A stretch of DNA of 64,000 nt from Candidatus Nezhaarchaeales archaeon (GTDB lineage: Archaea; Thermoproteota; Methanomethylicia; Nezhaarchaeales; WYZ-LMO8). Each line of letters begins with the position of its first letter. The first letter of the stretch is position 1. The notes beneath the pieces were generated by a model. That model was not told where the DNA came from. It was given only the letters and a program-made list of their open reading frames with translations, and did not search any database. The stretch is from positions 288,001 through 352,000 of the forward strand of contig JAWAKK010000002.1 of assembly GCA_038887515.1 (NCBI GenBank), read 5' to 3'. Shown piece by piece: positions 34,438 through 53,186 of the stretch. The position numbers were made by a program, and so were the translations under genes.

Positions 34438-35514
34438 GTGTTGTGCTACGTGCTGACAACGGGTAAGTGTAACTTAAAATGCGATTACTGTGGAGGTAGT
34501 TTTCCTGAAAGTCTTGTACCTTCAACAATAAAGTATGGAGTAATAGATTTGAATAACTTTCTAAGTTGCGTCGAAAACGTTACGATAGCTTTTTACGGAG
34601 GAGAACCACTCATAAACTCCTCATGGATAATGAAGGTTATGAATAGAGTAGAGGCAAAGCACTACGTGATTCAAACTAACGGTCTCTTGATAGACAAACT
34701 CCCCATGGACTACTGGCTTCGCATGAGCGCGGTCCTTCTTTCAATCGACGGAGTGGAAGAGACAACCGACGCTCATAGAGGTAAAGGGGTTTATAAGGCT
34801 ATCATTGAAGCGGCCAAGAAACTTCGAAGCATGTGCTACGAGGGGGACATAATAGCCAGGATGACCCTAACCGAGTCAAGTGACGTCTATAGGGACGTCT
34901 TGCACCTTTTATCTCTAGAAATTTTCGACCATGTCCATTGGCAATTAAATGCCGTTTGGAACCCTAACATGATAGCTTTCAAGCGTTGGGCGACGCGCGA
35001 CTACATACCTAAGCTTAAAGCTTTGGTGGACTTATGGACTTTTAGGGCATTAAAAGGCGAGATCTTGGGGATAGCCCCATTTAAGGCCCTTTCTTATGCA
35101 ATGATAAAGGGCCTTGATCTAGGAAGCCCTCCATGTGGTGCTGGTTGGGCCTCCTTAGCTATAAACACCAATGGTGACGTCCTAGCCTGTCCGATAGCAG
35201 TTGATGTAAAGTGGGCTAGACTTGGAAATGTAAGAGAGTCTTCATGCAATGATCTTCTCGGAGTAGTAAGGATAGGAGAGCCTTGTGTGAGCTGCAACTA
35301 TAACAATTTATGTGGAGGTCGTTGCCTATATGCTTATTACGAGAGGTTATGGGGAGATGAAGGTTTCGGCTTGATGTGTGAAGTCTCTCGAGCACTTATA
35401 GATAAGCTTCGCCAAGTTAAGCCGGTCATAGAGAAGGCATTGAAGAGTAACGGTGCAAATCTGGAATCTTTAAGGTATCCAACTTTCCCAAATAGCATCG
35501 AGATAATACCTTAA
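34438..35514 (+). CDS. Radical SAM/SPASM protein (AF0577/TIGR04084-like)
   Basis: TTGKCNLKCDYCGGS, FYGGEPL, VHWQL, CGAG, CGGRC, EIIP end. Confidence 0.88.
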   Translation: MLCYVLTTGKCNLKCDYCGGSFPESLVPSTIKYGVIDLNNFLSCVENVTIAFYGGEPLINSSWIMKVMNRVEAKHYVIQTNGLLIDKLPMDYWLRMSAVLLSIDGVEETTDAHRGKGVYKAIIEAAKKLRSMCYEGDIIARMTLTESSDVYRDVLHLLSLEIFDHVHWQLNAVWNPNMIAFKRWATRDYIPKLKALVDLWTFRALKGEILGIAPFKALSYAMIKGLDLGSPPCGAGWASLAINTNGDVLACPIAVDVKWARLGNVRESSCNDLLGVVRIGEPCVSCNYNNLCGGRCLYAYYERLWGDEGFGLMCEVSRALIDKLRQVKPVIEKALKSNGANLESLRYPTFPNSIEIIP

Positions 35515-45399: not shown

Positions 45400-45684
45400 G
45401 TGCCGGCTATAGAAATAGGTAGGATATGTGTTAAGAATGCTGGCAGGTTCGCTGGAAGGAAGTGCGTCATAATCGACGTAATTGATGAAAACTTTGTCCT
45501 AGTGACAGGACCAAAGGAACTAACAGGTATCAAGAGGAAGAGGTGCAACATTAAACATTTAGTGCCAACGCACGAGAAAATAGAGGTAACAAAGGGAGCT
45601 AGTGACGAAGAGGTGAAGGCAGCCCTCGAAAAAGCTGGTAAAGTAGAGTTTATGAAAGAAAAAGTCTCCCCGATAACTCCATAA
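45400..45684 (+). CDS. rpl14e: 50S ribosomal protein eL14
   Basis: [25 protein letters not shown]. Confidence 0.96.
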
Positions 45685-45709
45685 ACTCCTTCTTTCAATA
45701 CATTTTCTG

Positions 45710-46714
45710 GTGAAGCAAGTGGGTGTACTTATTAAAGCTGAGGATACCACCGACTATAGTTATGGTTGCCCTCCAGACCTTAGACCTATCGAGCTTCACA
45801 TAGATTTGGGCATAATAAACCTTGACAAGCCTTCAGGCCCTACAAGTCATGAGGTTACATCATGGGTTAAGAAGCTCATCGGTGTTGATAAAGCCGGACA
45901 TGGTGGAACCCTAGAGCCCACATAAGGGCGGGGAAATCCGAGAGTTACAGGCGTATTACCTATTGCTCTAGGTAGAGCACGAAAGATCCTTCGATACATT
46001 GTTCACTCAGACAAAACCTACGTCTGTGTGATGGCTCTTCACGGGGTGGTCTCTGAAGACAAAATAAGAGAGGTGTGCGAGGAGTTCGTGGGGCCGATAT
46101 ATCAGAGACCGCCGCTCAAGGCTTCGGTTGAAAGGAGGTTGAGAATTAGGAGGGTATATTCAATAGATGTGCATGAAGTCGTTGGCAAGCTAGTGCTAAT
46201 GACTGTACGCTGCGAGGCTGGAACGTACATACGGAAGTTGTGCCACGATATAGGCGAAGTCCTTGGCGTAGGAGCTCACATGGCCGAGCTTCGAAGGATA
46301 CAGACGGGCCCCTTCACTGAAAATGAGAATTTAGTGACCATGCACGAGCTTCATGAAGCAGTAATAGCATGGAGGGAGTACAACAATGGGGGGCTCCTTA
46401 GAAAAGTTGTTTTGCCAGTAGAGTACACTGTGAGGAATATGCCAAAGATCTATATAAGGGATTCAGCCGTTGACGCTATATGTCACGGTGCACCTTTAGC
46501 CGCCCCGGGTGTAGTTCATCTTACGGACGATATTGTGAAAGATAAGCATGTAGCAATAATGACTCTAAAGGGTGAGCTTGTTGCTATAGCAAAAGCACTT
46601 ATGAGTTCGAACGAAATAATGGAGGTAGAAAAAGGGATCGTAGCAAAACCGATACGAGTAATAATGAAGCCAGGAATATACCCTAAGCAGTGGGGAAACA
46701 CTAGGCTTGTATAG
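45710..46714 (+). CDS. cbf5: H/ACA pseudouridine synthase Cbf5 with a 21-nt intron
   Basis: LDKPSGPTSHEV, GHGGTL; splicing 45915-45935 restores TLDPRVTGVLP in frame with the 46028 ORF (GTYIRKL, PUA domain). Confidence 0.95.
45915..45935 (+). other. BHB-type mRNA intron in the catalytic Asp codon of cbf5
   Basis: CCCT-AG^A-GCCC ACATAA GGGC-GGGG-AA^A; contains an in-frame TAA. Confidence 0.9.
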
Positions 46715-46755
46715 AAAGGATAATTAAAGAGGGGGAAACCATCATTATAATCAGA

Positions 46756-46859
46756 GCCGGGATACCCTAGTGGTAGGGGGCAGGCCTGGAGGGGCTTTAA
46801 GCCCCATTGAGCCTGTGGCCCTCTGGGCCGCGCGGGTTCGAATCCCGCTCCCGGCGCCA
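46756..46859 (+). tRNA. tRNA-Ser(GGA) with 18-nt intron 46792-46809, CCA encoded
   Basis: CAGGC CT GGA G[intron]A GCCTG; long variable arm. Confidence 0.93.
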
Positions 46860-46938
46860 GTAACCTGTTTTTCGAAGCTTTTCTCCGAAACCCCTTTTCT
46901 TGAGCACTAGTCCCTTAGTAAGGGGGCCCTTTAGGTCT

Positions 46939-48189
46939 CTAGACCTTTATTTCATATACTTTCTTCATTTTTTCAAGATTGACAACGCTTTCAAGATTCC
47001 CTCTCTTTATGACTCTAAAAGCATGCTCTATCAAAATCTTATAAAATTCGCAGTTTGGGCTTTTGCTGAAGAGAGAGCCCTTTTCAGCATAAACCTCTGC
47101 GGGGCATGGACTACCACATATATTCCTATAAACACAGTCTTTGCATTCCTCAATTCTCTCCACAATCCTTTCCCTAACAATTCTAAAACTCTCCCTCAAC
47201 CTTTCAGGGTTGTTTACAACATGTAATGGGCTCCTAAATTCCTCCATCCCGATAAATTCGCTGCACGGAAAAACTCCATCAGGAGTTATAGCGAAAAATC
47301 TTCTCCCACCACCACATGGTGAAATATCGCACTGCAAAACTCTTGAATAAGGAGCAACGATGCCTAGAACTATGTTCGCAAAGTCACCTATAACGATTCT
47401 TTTACCGCTTTTTGTGTATTCTATTGCTTTTTCAACAGCCTTCACGAATTCGATTGCAGCCTCTTTTGGATCAGCTCTAAGGTTTCTCCCTCCCTCGCTC
47501 GTCCCCCTCACGGGGTTCATTAAAACAAGTCTCACTTTTCCAGCGAGAAAATCTATGAGGTCACTTAGCTGTGAGTAGTTAAGCCTCGTAATCGTGGTAA
47601 TCGTATAAAATTCTTTATAGCCTTTAAACCACTCAAGGATCTTGCAGATCTTATCGAAGTGACCTCTCCCTCTTAAATAATCTTCTATCTCTCTTGAAGG
47701 AGAGTCAAATGAGACCCCAACGTTAACCTTTTTCTCCTTGAAGAAATCAGCGTCTTCTTCCTCCATTAAAAAACCATTCGTTTGAATCCCAAACTTCATT
47801 TGTTTGTGGTCGTCTATGATTTCGTATAATTGTTTTTTCATCAGTAAGGGTTCTACCCCATGAAAAACAACATTTCTGATTCCTAGCTCCTCAAACTTCT
47901 TCAGTAATGATCTTAAGTCCTCAGAACTGAACTCCCTCCTCCTCTTTCTCACCCTCTCTGGGATGTAGCAGTAAGGACAGTTTGTATTACATCTTTCTGT
48001 TATATTCACGTAAACCGTGTTAAAATCGACTTCGAACCTATATCTCTCCATTTTTAACTTAAGCTCTCTGCCGATTTTCTCGTATAATTTAAGCGCGTTT
48101 TCAGGCATTTCAGAGTCATAAATGACCCAGAAGTTTGTTTCAGGATCTATCAGCACCTTAAAGTCATCAATGACTTGTACTCTGCTCAT
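46939..48189 (-). CDS. Peptide-modifying radical SAM/SPASM enzyme, CbpB-like
   Basis: IDPETNFW, TERCNTNCPYC, CDISPCGGGR, PCSEF, CKDC...ICGSPCPAE; start set at ATG 48189. Confidence 0.85.
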   Translation of the reverse strand: MSRVQVIDDFKVLIDPETNFWVIYDSEMPENALKLYEKIGRELKLKMERYRFEVDFNTVYVNITERCNTNCPYCYIPERVRKRRREFSSEDLRSLLKKFEELGIRNVVFHGVEPLLMKKQLYEIIDDHKQMKFGIQTNGFLMEEEDADFFKEKKVNVGVSFDSPSREIEDYLRGRGHFDKICKILEWFKGYKEFYTITTITRLNYSQLSDLIDFLAGKVRLVLMNPVRGTSEGGRNLRADPKEAAIEFVKAVEKAIEYTKSGKRIVIGDFANIVLGIVAPYSRVLQCDISPCGGGRRFFAITPDGVFPCSEFIGMEEFRSPLHVVNNPERLRESFRIVRERIVERIEECKDCVYRNICGSPCPAEVYAEKGSLFSKSPNCEFYKILIEHAFRVIKRGNLESVVNLEKMKKVYEIKV

Positions 48190-48218
48190 AACAACACCCA
48201 AAAATAAAAATGAGAGGA

Positions 48219-48299
48219 TTAAAATGGAGAGTCATCGGCCATTATGTAATGCGTTAATCCCCCACCTACCTCGCATTCAAACTGGAACGTTAACTCCAT
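48219..48299 (-). CDS. CbpA-like precursor peptide MELTFQFECEVGGGLTHYIMADDSPF (26 aa; not in ORF track)
   Basis: AGGAGG SD, ATG...TAA ending 30 nt before the radical SAM gene; C-x3-GGLTHYIM motif. Confidence 0.8.
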   Translation of the reverse strand: MELTFQFECEVGGGLTHYIMADDSPF

Positions 48300-48770
48300 C
48301 TTCTCCTTCCTCCTTTTGGATGGATTATTCATCCATATCATTTATCCTTAGTATTTAAGCCTTTTCGTAAAAGAACTCAAAAGAGGTGTAAACTCATTAA
48401 AAAGGTTTGTAGCTTTTGATTCCTGATCGTGGATTGCATGAGTTTTATAAAGTCTATGGGAGATGGGCATTTTATGTGTTACTTATGCCTAGGGGATCAT
48501 TATGATTTTTAGTACATTCATTTCCCCGGAGACCGCCACATAATTTGTGCTTTCTAAATCTAGCACCGCAACATTTTGTGCTAACTGAAATCCAAAGTAA
48601 AGTCATGGGGACAGGTTTTTAGCATCGAGTTTTGTGCGAATTTCGGCAAAGCCCGTTCTATCGAGTACACCTTGCAAACAAGCTAAAAATTTAAGATTAA
48701 AATCGAATATGTGAAGTGATTATTTGGTTTAAGCATTAAAGTTATGATGGTTGTAGCGTGGTGAGACATA

Positions 48771-49644
48771 ATTAGTACCGATGTCGTTATTGTAGGCAGT
48801 GGTGCTGGAGGCAGTATAGTATCTTACGACCTTGTTAATAGAGGGCTTAAGGTGATGCTGGTGAGGAGATAGCCCCGAAAAGGCTAGAGAAGGCTATCGC
48901 CCTGTACTATCGTCAATTGAAGTTCAGAGGTGCATGTGCATAGGTGGGATAACGCTCGTCTCTCTAGGAAACATTTCCATTACTGATGGTATAATTGAGA
49001 GGTTCAGAGAGCTTGGCATCGACTTGAAGAGGGAGGAGACGAAGTTTGTAGGTTAATGCGGGTTGCCGAAGTTCCACGAAGTAAATTACCGCCATTCACC
49101 ATGAAGTTCGTAGAGGCTGCTGAGAAGTTGGGAGTAAAAGCAAGACCGATGCCTAAGTCGGTTGACTTCAATAAGTGCATTGGTTGCGGCAAGTGCGCTT
49201 ACGGTTGTACCAAAGGGTGCGAAGCTCACAACTCTAGACCTCATTAGGAAAAACTTACAGCAAGGATTGACGTTGCCACGTAGATTCAAGGTGGAAAAGC
49301 TATATCGACAGCATGGAGGGTTGGTCGTGGAAGGTTTTGCGAGTGGAAGTATGGTAAAGGTCAAGTGTAAAGCTCTAGTCTTGGCTGCTGCTCTTGAAAC
49401 TCCAAGACTTTTAACTCAAATCGACGATGAAAACATTAGGAAAAAACCTCTTCATTGATCCTTTTGTAGCCATAGGCAGACCCTACAATGGGCCCTCCGC
49501 AAGCGATGGAATTCAGATGCCCGCCTACATTGATTGCCACGACTTCCTACTTTCTCCTCATTACTCGGGTCTTCTACAGTTTCAGCTGATTGCAAGGAGC
49601 GTAGATTGCAAAGGTAGAGGAATCGCCTCTGTAATGGTCAAGGT
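48771..49644 (+). pseudogene. Decayed GMC-oxidoreductase paralog of 51927-53186
   Basis: DVVIVGSGAGGSIVS, KSVDFNKCIGCGKCAYGC, ALETPRLL, GIQM, ASVMVKV spread across frameshifts and stops. Confidence 0.88.
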
Positions 49645-49839
49645 GGTAGAATCATTGCAAGGGGATTTGTGAGCGCCATTGTCTACTTATCATTCCTACT
49701 CATTCTTAGCGCTATTTCTCCGCAAGCTCTAGCCATACTACCCCTAGGCCTGCTCTTTACTTTAATATTCGTGATTATAGGAGTCTACGAAACTTACAGA
49801 AAGAGGAGTTTAGCTAGGGAGTTGAAGGAGGGTTCTTAG
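49637..49839 (+). pseudogene. 3' remnant of a paralog of the 56400-56864 membrane protein
   Basis: RGFVSAIVYLSFLL...LPLG...IGVYETYR vs RGFISAIAYLAFLL...LPFG...IGIYETYR. Confidence 0.8.
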
Positions 49840-51926: not shown

Positions 51927-53186
51927 ATGAAAGCGGACGTAGTAGTCGTAGGGAGTGGAGCTGGTGGAAGTATAGTTTCTAACGAGCTTGTAAACAGAGG
52001 TTTAAAGGTGGTTCTAGTAGAGAAAGGCGAAGATTTAGGACTTGAAAAGGCTTATTTGGGCTTTCGCTCGACGCTGTCATCAATAGACTTACTTAGATGC
52101 GAAGCTGTTGGAGGTACGACCCTCATATCCCTCGGGAACATGCTTATAACCAATACAATTATCGAGAAGTTTAAGGAAGTCGGTATAGATTTGACGGCTG
52201 AGGTCGATGAGGTGCGTAAGCTCATGCACGTAAAAGATATTCCAGTAGATAAGTTGCCGCAGTTTGCTGTGAAATTCATCGAGGTTTCTAGGAGTATGGG
52301 ATTAGATGCAAAGGTTATGCAGAAATCAATAGACTTTAACAAATGTATAGGTTGTGGTGGCTGTGCTTATGGCTGTGCAAGGGATGCAAAACGTACAGCG
52401 CTTGATCTGATAAGGAGAAGCCTTAGACAAGGATTGGTGTTACTAAGCTCATTTGAAGTTAACAGGGTACATAGATCTCAGGGTCAGGGAGAAGAGATAG
52501 TAGTTGAGGGAGTCGTTAGAGGTGAGAAGCTCAAGGTTATTTGTAAGGCTCTAATTCTAGCCGCAGGCGCTCTTGAAACCCCTAGGCTTTTAATTCAATT
52601 ACACGACAACGATAACATCGGGAAGCACCTCTTTGTAGATCCATTCTTAATCGTAGGCGGACCTTATAGCGGACCTCCAGCAAATGAAGGAATTCAGATG
52701 GCGGCCTATATTGACTATCAAGACTACATGCTTTCACCTAATTTCTCGGGCGCCTTACAATTTCAGTTGTTATCAAAAAAGGTTGACTATCGAGGGAAGA
52801 GCCTTGCATCAATAATGGTAAAAGTAGGCGACGAAGGGAGCGGGAGGGTATGGCCCGATGGAATTGTCGAAATACACATGACAAGGAGGGATCTAAAAGT
52901 TCTTGAGAGAGGAGTAAAAGAAGCCAAGAACATACTTTCCGAGTTAGGAGTAAAGGATGAAGACGTAGTTGTAACCCCTATAAGGGGGGCGCATCCAGGT
53001 GGGACAGCGGCACTAGGTTACGTAGTATCTCGAGATTTAAGCATAAGCGGTTGTGATGGTGTATTCGTGGCCGACGCAAGTCTAATACCACCTCTGCTTG
53101 GAAAACCACCAATGCTGCTGATAATGGCCTTAGCTATGAAAGTATCAAAGAAAGTATGTGAATACTTAGGGAAATATGCGAGCTAA
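51927..53186 (+). CDS. GMC-family flavin oxidoreductase with a 4Fe-4S insert
   Basis: GSGAGG, CIGCGGCAYGC, AHPGGTA, ADASLIP, GKPPML. Confidence 0.88.
   Translation: MKADVVVVGSGAGGSIVSNELVNRGLKVVLVEKGEDLGLEKAYLGFRSTLSSIDLLRCEAVGGTTLISLGNMLITNTIIEKFKEVGIDLTAEVDEVRKLMHVKDIPVDKLPQFAVKFIEVSRSMGLDAKVMQKSIDFNKCIGCGGCAYGCARDAKRTALDLIRRSLRQGLVLLSSFEVNRVHRSQGQGEEIVVEGVVRGEKLKVICKALILAAGALETPRLLIQLHDNDNIGKHLFVDPFLIVGGPYSGPPANEGIQMAAYIDYQDYMLSPNFSGALQFQLLSKKVDYRGKSLASIMVKVGDEGSGRVWPDGIVEIHMTRRDLKVLERGVKEAKNILSELGVKDEDVVVTPIRGAHPGGTAALGYVVSRDLSISGCDGVFVADASLIPPLLGKPPMLLIMALAMKVSKKVCEYLGKYAS

Follow-up and report, generated by a model that had tools for sequence, protein, structure and literature searches.

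CbpA and CbpB make up a catalogued, uncharacterized system in which a short peptide is encoded next to a radical S-adenosylmethionine (SAM) enzyme with a SPASM domain. Both partners have curated equivalog models, TIGR04164 ('cobo_pep', cut-off 35 bits) for the peptide and the NCBIfam model TIGR04163 ('rSAM_cobopep', cut-off 375 bits) for the enzyme. The system is widespread, and in many bacteria it is found inside vitamin B12 operons. Here we describe a further member, the cbpAB pair located in a 64,000-nt stretch of a Candidatus Nezhaarchaeales genome (contig JAWAKK010000002.1, positions 288,001 to 352,000; hereafter the window). The evidence given below favors, with a probability that we put at about 0.65, a CbpA/CbpB cassette that was imported into this hot-spring archaeon, in which CbpB would introduce one cross-link into CbpA and the product would have an intracellular role related to cobalt or corrinoids.

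Outside the family, CbpB is most readily compared with CteB, the SCIFF maturase of Clostridium thermocellum (5WGG, 5WHY), which has the same radical SAM core and SPASM domain with two auxiliary clusters and likewise acts on a Cys-containing peptide, CteA. However, the sequence identity is only 19-20%, CbpB reaches just 90.6 bits against the SCIFF model (cut-off 425), and a ~55-residue N-terminal unit takes the place of the full RRE (RiPP recognition element) domain. Moreover, CbpA has one Cys, whereas SCIFF peptides have six. The top characterized family after CbpB itself is that of the PapB-type ranthipeptide maturases (NF047865; 102.7 bits), SPASM enzymes that form bonds between the sulfur of Cys and carbons of side chains. 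Here too there are differences, since CbpB stays far under the cut-off of 340 and CbpA is devoid of the repeated Cys-x3-Asp/Glu-type motifs of PapB substrates. Finally, the sulfatase-maturating enzyme anSME (PDB 4K36-4K39) has the second-closest fold and modifies one Cys or Ser within a short leaderless segment, the substrate motif being Cys/Ser-x-Pro/Ala-x-Arg. In contrast to CbpB, it converts a large protein substrate to a formylglycine product and has no dedicated small peptide gene.

The cbpAB pair and its acquisition

All coding features of the finding lie on the minus strand. The gene cbpA (48219..48299, stop included) encodes a predicted precursor peptide of 26 aa that reads MELTFQFECEVGGGLTHYIMADDSPF. 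It is followed, after a spacer of 29 nt (48190..48218), by cbpB (46939..48189, with the ATG at 48189), encoding a radical SAM/SPASM peptide-modifying enzyme of 416 aa that is identical to the called protein of the annotation. A Shine-Dalgarno sequence, GGAGG, is located at 48313-48309, 9 nt 5′ of the cbpA ATG, and a second GGAG stands 3 nt 5′ of the same ATG. The arrangement is therefore the one given in a preliminary description made from the sequence alone: a short peptide with a strong Shine-Dalgarno sequence directly upstream of a CxxxCxxC/SPASM enzyme on the same strand. The gap between the two genes is short, as that description said, and measures 29 nt, not 30.

CbpB matched TIGR04163 with 442.6 bits (E 1.3e-132) over profile positions 10-426 of 428, and a six-frame search of the genome with the same model (442.2 bits) showed it to be the only CbpB present. 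The NCBIfam families ranking below were PapB, TIGR04083 (96.2 bits), SCIFF maturase and YhhB. The Pfam Radical_SAM model matched at 94.3 bits; the Pfam SPASM model gave no match on the window CbpB at E <= 1 and is recorded for many homologs. In an alignment of 18 sequences that includes the window's, C67, C71 and C74 of the CxxxCxxC motif are invariant, as are C287, C292, C309, C349, C358, C362 and C380 in the C-terminal part, and C352 is at least 90% conserved. The window CbpB has every residue that is invariant among its 17 aligned homologs. That it is a full member of the curated family, with three Fe-S cluster motifs intact, is well supported by these comparisons.

The match of CbpA to TIGR04164 reaches 20.6 bits (E 2.3e-4) and is the sole one in a six-frame search of the whole genome. 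Since the genome's only TIGR04164 match stands directly upstream of the genome's only CbpB, the arrangement is more than chance. The CbpA/CbpB (TIGR04164/TIGR04163) identity suggested earlier is thus borne out by an enzyme above its cut-off and a matching peptide that adjoins it. TIGR04165, named earlier as another family to be considered, turned out to be unrelated (methano_modCys), and nothing in the genome exceeds its cut-off.

How typical is a peptide of this kind upstream of cbpB? At least 597 confirmed CbpB matches are present in the genome collection, and 80 loci of CbpB relatives were taken for comparison. A simple motif pattern detected an upstream peptide in 51 of the 80, and a hidden Markov model (HMM) built from 50 motif-selected peptides detected one on the same strand in 79, its end lying 20-370 nt ahead of the point where the tblastn match to cbpB begins; only locus L072 gave none by the HMM. 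Among the 29 peptides outside the seed, 28 were found with E <= 6e-9 and one (L035) with E 1.4e-3. The preliminary description had stated beforehand that homologs lacking an upstream peptide would speak against a pair, and 79 of 80 keep it. In an alignment of 79 peptides, including the window's and omitting L024 (Ns), Cys9, Gly14, Leu15 and His17 are invariant, the column of Thr16 holds Thr or Ser and that of Tyr18 holds Tyr or Phe. The conserved core (Cys, 4-6 residues, Gly-Leu-[Thr/Ser]-His-[Tyr/Phe]) is present in the window CbpA, which has every residue invariant among the 78 homologous peptides. The pair thus shares with the family both the C...GL[TS]H[YF] core and the order of peptide, short gap and enzyme on one strand.

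When TIGR04164 was run on the 78 CbpB-adjacent peptides, 3 reached 35 bits, 61 matched at E <= 0.1 and 17 gave no match. Because 75 of the 78 score below 35 bits, a sub-threshold score is the rule in the family and no sign of unusual divergence of the window CbpA. The peptide had previously been called divergent, a term that does not suit a sequence ~72% identical to Archaeoglobaceae peptides (L007-L009) and judged by a model that misses most family members. The name CbpA-like is thus given to it on the grounds of homology and synteny and not because of the curated threshold. It corresponds to an Archaeoglobaceae-type short form with 26 aa, eight residues before the Cys and an acidic tail ending in SPF, in contrast to bacterial CbpA peptides of ~40-50 aa with a Lys-rich N-terminus.

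The longest open reading frame (ORF) for the peptide has 40 aa (48341..48219). Its last 26 codons begin at the ATG at 48299, and in-frame ATGs are found upstream at 48341 and 48332. The intervening 14 codons (48300..48341, minus strand) had been thought to add a basic leader (MNNPSKRRKEK), which now seems unlikely, and we rejected the 40-aa form as the gene product. KRRKEK is the translation of the purine-rich Shine-Dalgarno stretch. A stop no more than three codons upstream of the equivalent Met makes a leader impossible in seven of the closest loci (L007-L010, L012, L015 and L017). DNA homology to L009 and L017 starts exactly at 48299 and reaches the cbpB stop. Moreover, in the complex model described below, the confident interface is made up of residues 14-40 of the 40-aa ORF, with residues 1-13 taking no part in it. 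The extension, which is not conserved and holds the Shine-Dalgarno sequence, is probably 5′ untranslated region.

A candidate TATA box, TTAAATA (48352..48358, minus strand), is located 53-59 nt 5′ of the cbpA ATG and is preceded by a purine-rich stretch resembling a transcription factor B recognition element. A similar element, AAAAGCTTATAT, precedes cbpA in L007-L010 and is conserved there. We infer its promoter role from consensus spacing; at the usual archaeal distance, transcription might start after both upstream ATGs. In L007-L010, the AAAAGCTTATAT element common to Archaeoglobaceae-type cbpA lies ~20-35 nt upstream of the ATG, with a TTATAT core starting ~28 nt before it, a spacing that suggests leaderless transcripts. 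The window cbpA has instead ~30 extra bases with a Shine-Dalgarno sequence. The inverted repeat noted earlier ahead of this sequence is indeed present (48318..48334, minus strand; arms GGATG at 48334-48330 and CATCC at 48322-48318, 5 bp each with a 7-nt loop). It is not conserved, being absent from the five aligned closest Archaeoglobaceae-type loci (L007-L010 and L017), which do not have that stretch, and there is no evidence of a function for it.

The host is a TACK archaeon, as had been proposed: its MCM protein shares 76-84% identity with proteins that bear the name Candidatus Nezhaarchaeales or Nezhaarchaeota. At a presence threshold of E <= 1e-60, CbpB was found in none of 60 relatives (6 of the same genus, 3 of the same family, 5 of the same order and 46 of the same class) and in one of 400 other sampled genomes of the phylum (the pair in 2 of 401 with the host included). 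The nearest CbpB proteins are 68-75% identical and, where named, come from Archaeoglobaceae or Geoglobus. In a quick IQ-TREE phylogeny (LG+G4, 78 rows; L021, L035 and L038 dropped owing to a stop or short length), the window CbpB is sister to four Archaeoglobales/Archaeoglobaceae rows with a support of 98 in the Shimodaira–Hasegawa-like approximate likelihood ratio test (SH-aLRT). Together they fall within a clade of 20 rows (SH-aLRT 94), of which 16 are labelled, without exception as Archaeoglobi-type. At the DNA level, homology to loci of the donor type is limited to 48299-46949. Acquisition of cbpAB as a ~1.35-kb two-gene unit from an Archaeoglobaceae-type donor is well supported by these sequence relationships.

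Breaks in DNA homology with same-genus genomes define an insertion of ~1.8 kb (46860..48681) that holds only cbpB, cbpA and non-coding DNA. Four same-genus genomes encode, in this order, Cbf5, the tRNA and a 419-aa GMC-type oxidoreductase and have no cassette; in the relatives, ~200 bp lie between the tRNA and the oxidoreductase gene. In the comparison with the same-genus genome G005, homology breaks off at the CCA of the tRNA (46859) and is picked up again at 48682-48702 and 48767; with another one (G006), it returns at 48767. The left boundary is formed by a tRNA-Ser(GGA) gene (46756..46859, plus strand), which converges on the cbpB stop, the two being 79 nt apart. On the other side lies a frameshifted and truncated pseudogene of a GMC-type oxidoreductase dependent on flavin adenine dinucleotide (48771..49645, plus strand), in which tblastn recovers residues 1-300 of 419 in three frames with internal stops. 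By synteny with the same-genus genomes, it is the native neighbor of the tRNA. Tree placement, genome surveys and synteny agree, and acquisition at the tRNA 3′ end, raised earlier as a possibility, is probable.

Genomic context and predicted function

In the window, no transporter or protease gene adjoins the pair, just as the preliminary description had it. Its neighbors are the tRNA-Ser gene, the oxidoreductase pseudogene and genes for a nicotinamide mononucleotide (NMN) adenylyltransferase and a SpoIIM-like protein, with no cobalamin genes adjoining. To characterize the context across the family, the neighboring ORFs of the 80 loci were clustered and the clusters annotated with Pfam. Recurrent neighbors include a CbiO-like ABC ATPase, CbiM, CbiQ, CbiC/CbiX, CbiD, corrin methylases, CobT and CbiB, as well as a CobD-type aminotransferase and a TonB-dependent receptor. 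Neighbors annotated with cobalamin or cobalt occur in 38 of the 80 loci, or in 35 if those having a generic ABC ATPase alone are left out, and in 29 of the 32 loci L055-L086, which are bacterial by their record titles. Cobalamin riboswitches were found in 4 of the 16 loci scanned from the same set. One (L056:27-151) heads a cbiMNQO-cbpAB stretch, and those in L055, L064 and L081 stand directly after cbpB, leading the next operon.

Archaeal loci with B12-type neighbors are mainly of Methanophagales (ANME-1-type) and Methanoliparum types, with cobT directly downstream. The 128 neighbors from 19 archaeal loci, assigned with Pfam, are variable and unrelated genes, among which no transporter or protease recurs. 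The window pair, like the Archaeoglobaceae-type ones, thus stands alone, whereas the bacterial pair is embedded in a cobalamin operon; in addition, the pair is rare in the host phylum. The function of cbpAB in the Archaeoglobaceae-type clade may differ from the bacterial one. The host does have homologs of cbiM, cbiO, cbiC, cbiD and a methylase; they are clustered at ~396.8-404.2 kb of contig C1, another contig than that of cbpAB.

The structural model of CbpB has a predicted local distance difference test (pLDDT) value of 88.5 and a predicted template modeling score (pTM) of 0.90. Ahead of the radical SAM barrel, it shows an N-terminal unit of ~55 residues with three strands and one long helix. 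By profile, the best match of known structure is CteB (E 4.1e-33, positions 53-388), followed by anSME (E 1.1e-23). The same two lead the fold ranking, with template modeling (TM) scores of 0.71 and 0.70, followed by TigE, ChlB and SuiB. We also modeled CbpB in complex with the 40-aa ORF, with SAM and three 4Fe-4S clusters riding along. The complex scored 0.88, whereas the best of 3 controls scored 0.03; a mark at the 0.88 level is reached by 116 of 157 solved complexes and by 2 of 215 mismatched pairs. The runs share at least 69% of contacts, and the pLDDT of the partner is at least 56. The tightest modeled contacts involve peptide residues 17-21 (LTFQF in the 40-aa numbering) and residues 20-24 and 409-414 of the enzyme. 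The model supports binding of CbpA by CbpB. Eight residues precede the CbpA Cys and CbpB has no full RRE domain, so the familiar combination of a leader and an RRE is absent.

A plausible course of the reaction can be outlined. According to the model, the N-terminal LTFQF segment of CbpA would dock as a β-strand between CbpB strand 20-27 and the C-terminal tail (~403-416), and this strand docking would stand in for a long leader and a full RRE domain. The C...GLTHY core would sit in the enzyme barrel, where the 5′-deoxyadenosyl radical produced by CbpB would abstract a hydrogen, leading to one intramolecular cross-link. The most likely link would be a thioether that joins the sulfur of Cys9 to one of the carbons of the Gly-Leu-Thr-His-Tyr segment and so closes a small ring. 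We propose this link tentatively, at somewhat less than even odds. In sactipeptides and ranthipeptides, the Cys sulfur is bonded to an α, β or γ carbon, and an assignment of CbpA to this type would follow only from likeness to CteB and PapB. The product would act inside the cell in cobalt or corrinoid supply and would not be a secreted antibiotic. Such a role appears most likely because the pair comes without a transporter or protease and because its bacterial counterparts lie within cobalamin and cobalt operons.

A carbon-carbon cyclophane of the triceptide type, formed within H-Y-I or Y-I-M, with the invariant Cys and His serving as metal ligands of the product and not as cross-link partners, is the main rival to the thioether, because Tyr and Phe alternate after His. 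A Tyr or Phe at this place family-wide is what one would expect if an aromatic ring carbon, and not a hydroxyl, reacts. In addition, Cys and His would suit cobalt binding, in line with the cobalt and cobalamin genes of the bacterial context. However, two places past the aromatic residue the family has Met, Ile, Leu, Val or Pro, and thioether formation is what the closest solved structure and the closest curated families have in common. The SPASM models YhhB, AmcB and GrrM (83.3, 74.8 and 65.2 bits) score little under PapB (102.7), yet none of these cyclophane models comes near its own cut-off (445, 425 and 310, respectively). Overall, we consider a cyclophane unlikely. A radical reaction without a macrocycle, such as anSME-like conversion of Cys to formylglycine or an epimerization, could accommodate the single invariant Cys and the rank of anSME as the second-best solved match. 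It is nonetheless quite improbable, since CbpA is missing the anSME motif, the residues after the Cys vary, and a second reacting site is suggested by the GL[TS]H[YF] block, which is invariant and lies 4-6 residues from the Cys.

The remaining alternatives concern what the pair does and not how it reacts. An imported, silent cassette heading for decay would fit the decay of the neighboring native oxidoreductase gene and the location of the B12 genes on another contig. It would also fit the lack of RNA evidence for these genes; the 0 reads on 45400-49800 in two metatranscriptome runs of the same study, with ~3% of each run read, do not bear on expression either way. However, both frames are intact and all family-invariant residues are kept in CbpB and CbpA, and a strong Shine-Dalgarno sequence and a TATA-like element precede cbpA. 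Moreover, the genes have diverged by ~30% from their nearest relatives and yet show no damage to their frames, which speaks for selection having kept them over a long time. An inert passenger thus appears decidedly improbable. Highly improbable, in our view, is a secreted antimicrobial RiPP (ribosomally synthesized and post-translationally modified peptide), that is, a sactipeptide- or ranthipeptide-type bacteriocin. Sactibiotic maturases do belong to the same enzyme class, but the neighbors of the 80 loci include no recurrent exporter, leader peptidase or immunity cluster and are instead B12 and cobalt genes, and in the peptide no more than eight residues precede the Cys and a cleavage motif is missing.

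Several observations weigh against an imported, cross-linking and cobalt-related cassette and account for our restraint. With regard to import, neither an integrase nor an att-like repetition of the 3′ end of the tRNA was found at the insertion, none of the sampled genomes is the direct donor at ~70% nucleotide identity, and the composition is not clearly anomalous (cbpB has a GC content of 0.396 against 0.446 for the genome, and its third-position GC content is within the host range). CbpA is below the curated TIGR04164 cut-off. The lead of CteB over other SPASM families is modest (TM 0.70 for anSME; 83 bits for YhhB against 103 for PapB). The high score of the complex may be owed in part to likeness to solved maturase-peptide complexes (CteB, SuiB, ChlB), and the alignments and riding ligands of these runs differ from those of the tool's calibration. 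The B12 context is missing here and in all Archaeoglobaceae-type loci examined. Modification of CbpA is entirely a matter of what we infer, and a search of the literature in one library found no paper or experiment on the CbpA/CbpB family, and with it no source for the metal chelation that the preliminary description mentions as having been suggested.

Other features around the insertion

The tRNA at the left boundary matches Rfam RF00005 with 51.8 bits (46756-46856). Direct reading of the sequence gives the anticodon GGA, an intron in the anticodon loop after position 37, a long variable arm and an encoded CCA, that is, tRNA-Ser, and ARAGORN run with introns identified its orthologs in L104 and L105 as Ser(gga). 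A call of 'tRNA-Stop (tta)' at 46766-46855 was discarded as a miscall by ARAGORN without intron handling. Even with introns, ARAGORN gives inconsistent identities (Ala, Thr, Ser) for near-identical tRNA orthologs in related genomes.

An intact paralog of the GMC-type oxidoreductase is encoded at 51927-53186 (plus strand), 3 kb beyond the pseudogene. It is preceded by the genes for NMN adenylyltransferase and the SpoIIM-like membrane protein, and the closest G005 homolog of the latter lies ~230 kb from cbf5. It seems that a second rearrangement took place along with the cbpAB insertion or after it. DNA from a second hot-spring study (X2, X3) includes short contigs with 95-99% likeness to portions of cbpB, to the 3′ portion of cbpA and to the pseudogene; none of them bridges either junction, so that they speak neither for nor against the same insertion.

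The cbf5 gene (45710-46714, plus strand) is interrupted. The stop of its N-terminal ORF (45923-45925) falls within the conserved GHGGTL...VTG motif, and beyond it the gene goes on in the same frame; reading through adds about seven extra codons at the break. The break looks like the short pre-mRNA intron described for cbf5 in Crenarchaeota. The same-genus cbf5 homologs have an open frame of only 265-269 aa matching the C-terminal part, as would be expected if they were interrupted at this position too. RNA folding of the cbf5 gap revealed no significant structure (z -0.46). Elsewhere in the window, a second radical SAM/SPASM gene (34438-35514, plus strand) belongs to TIGR04084, the uncharacterized rSAM_AF0577 family (418.6 bits against a cut-off of 225).

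Implications for the CbpA/CbpB family

As the family is already catalogued, the discovery is a modest one. What is specific to this member, according to the sequence comparisons, is its acquisition across phyla at a tRNA gene, with the transferred unit comprising just two genes. The pair thus appears to be a free-standing two-gene unit that can cross phylum boundaries. The models further point to a short, leaderless type of precursor recognized by strand docking, and its minimal form would be a 26-residue peptide with an eight-residue recognition segment.

On a bolder reading, cross-linked CbpA might be a small intracellular cofactor handling cobalt or corrinoids, and cbpAB a self-sufficient mobile B12 accessory exchanged between archaeal phyla. 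We regard this as a speculative idea, possible and yet rather doubtful. The peptide could, for example, be a Cys/His cobalt chaperone feeding a chelatase, or it could present its invariant His to cobalt in an incomplete corrinoid. The curated CbpA model is narrow and misses most real members, and the cbpA gene goes unannotated as a result. For a first biochemical study of the family, the short thermophilic version described here would be well suited as a substrate.

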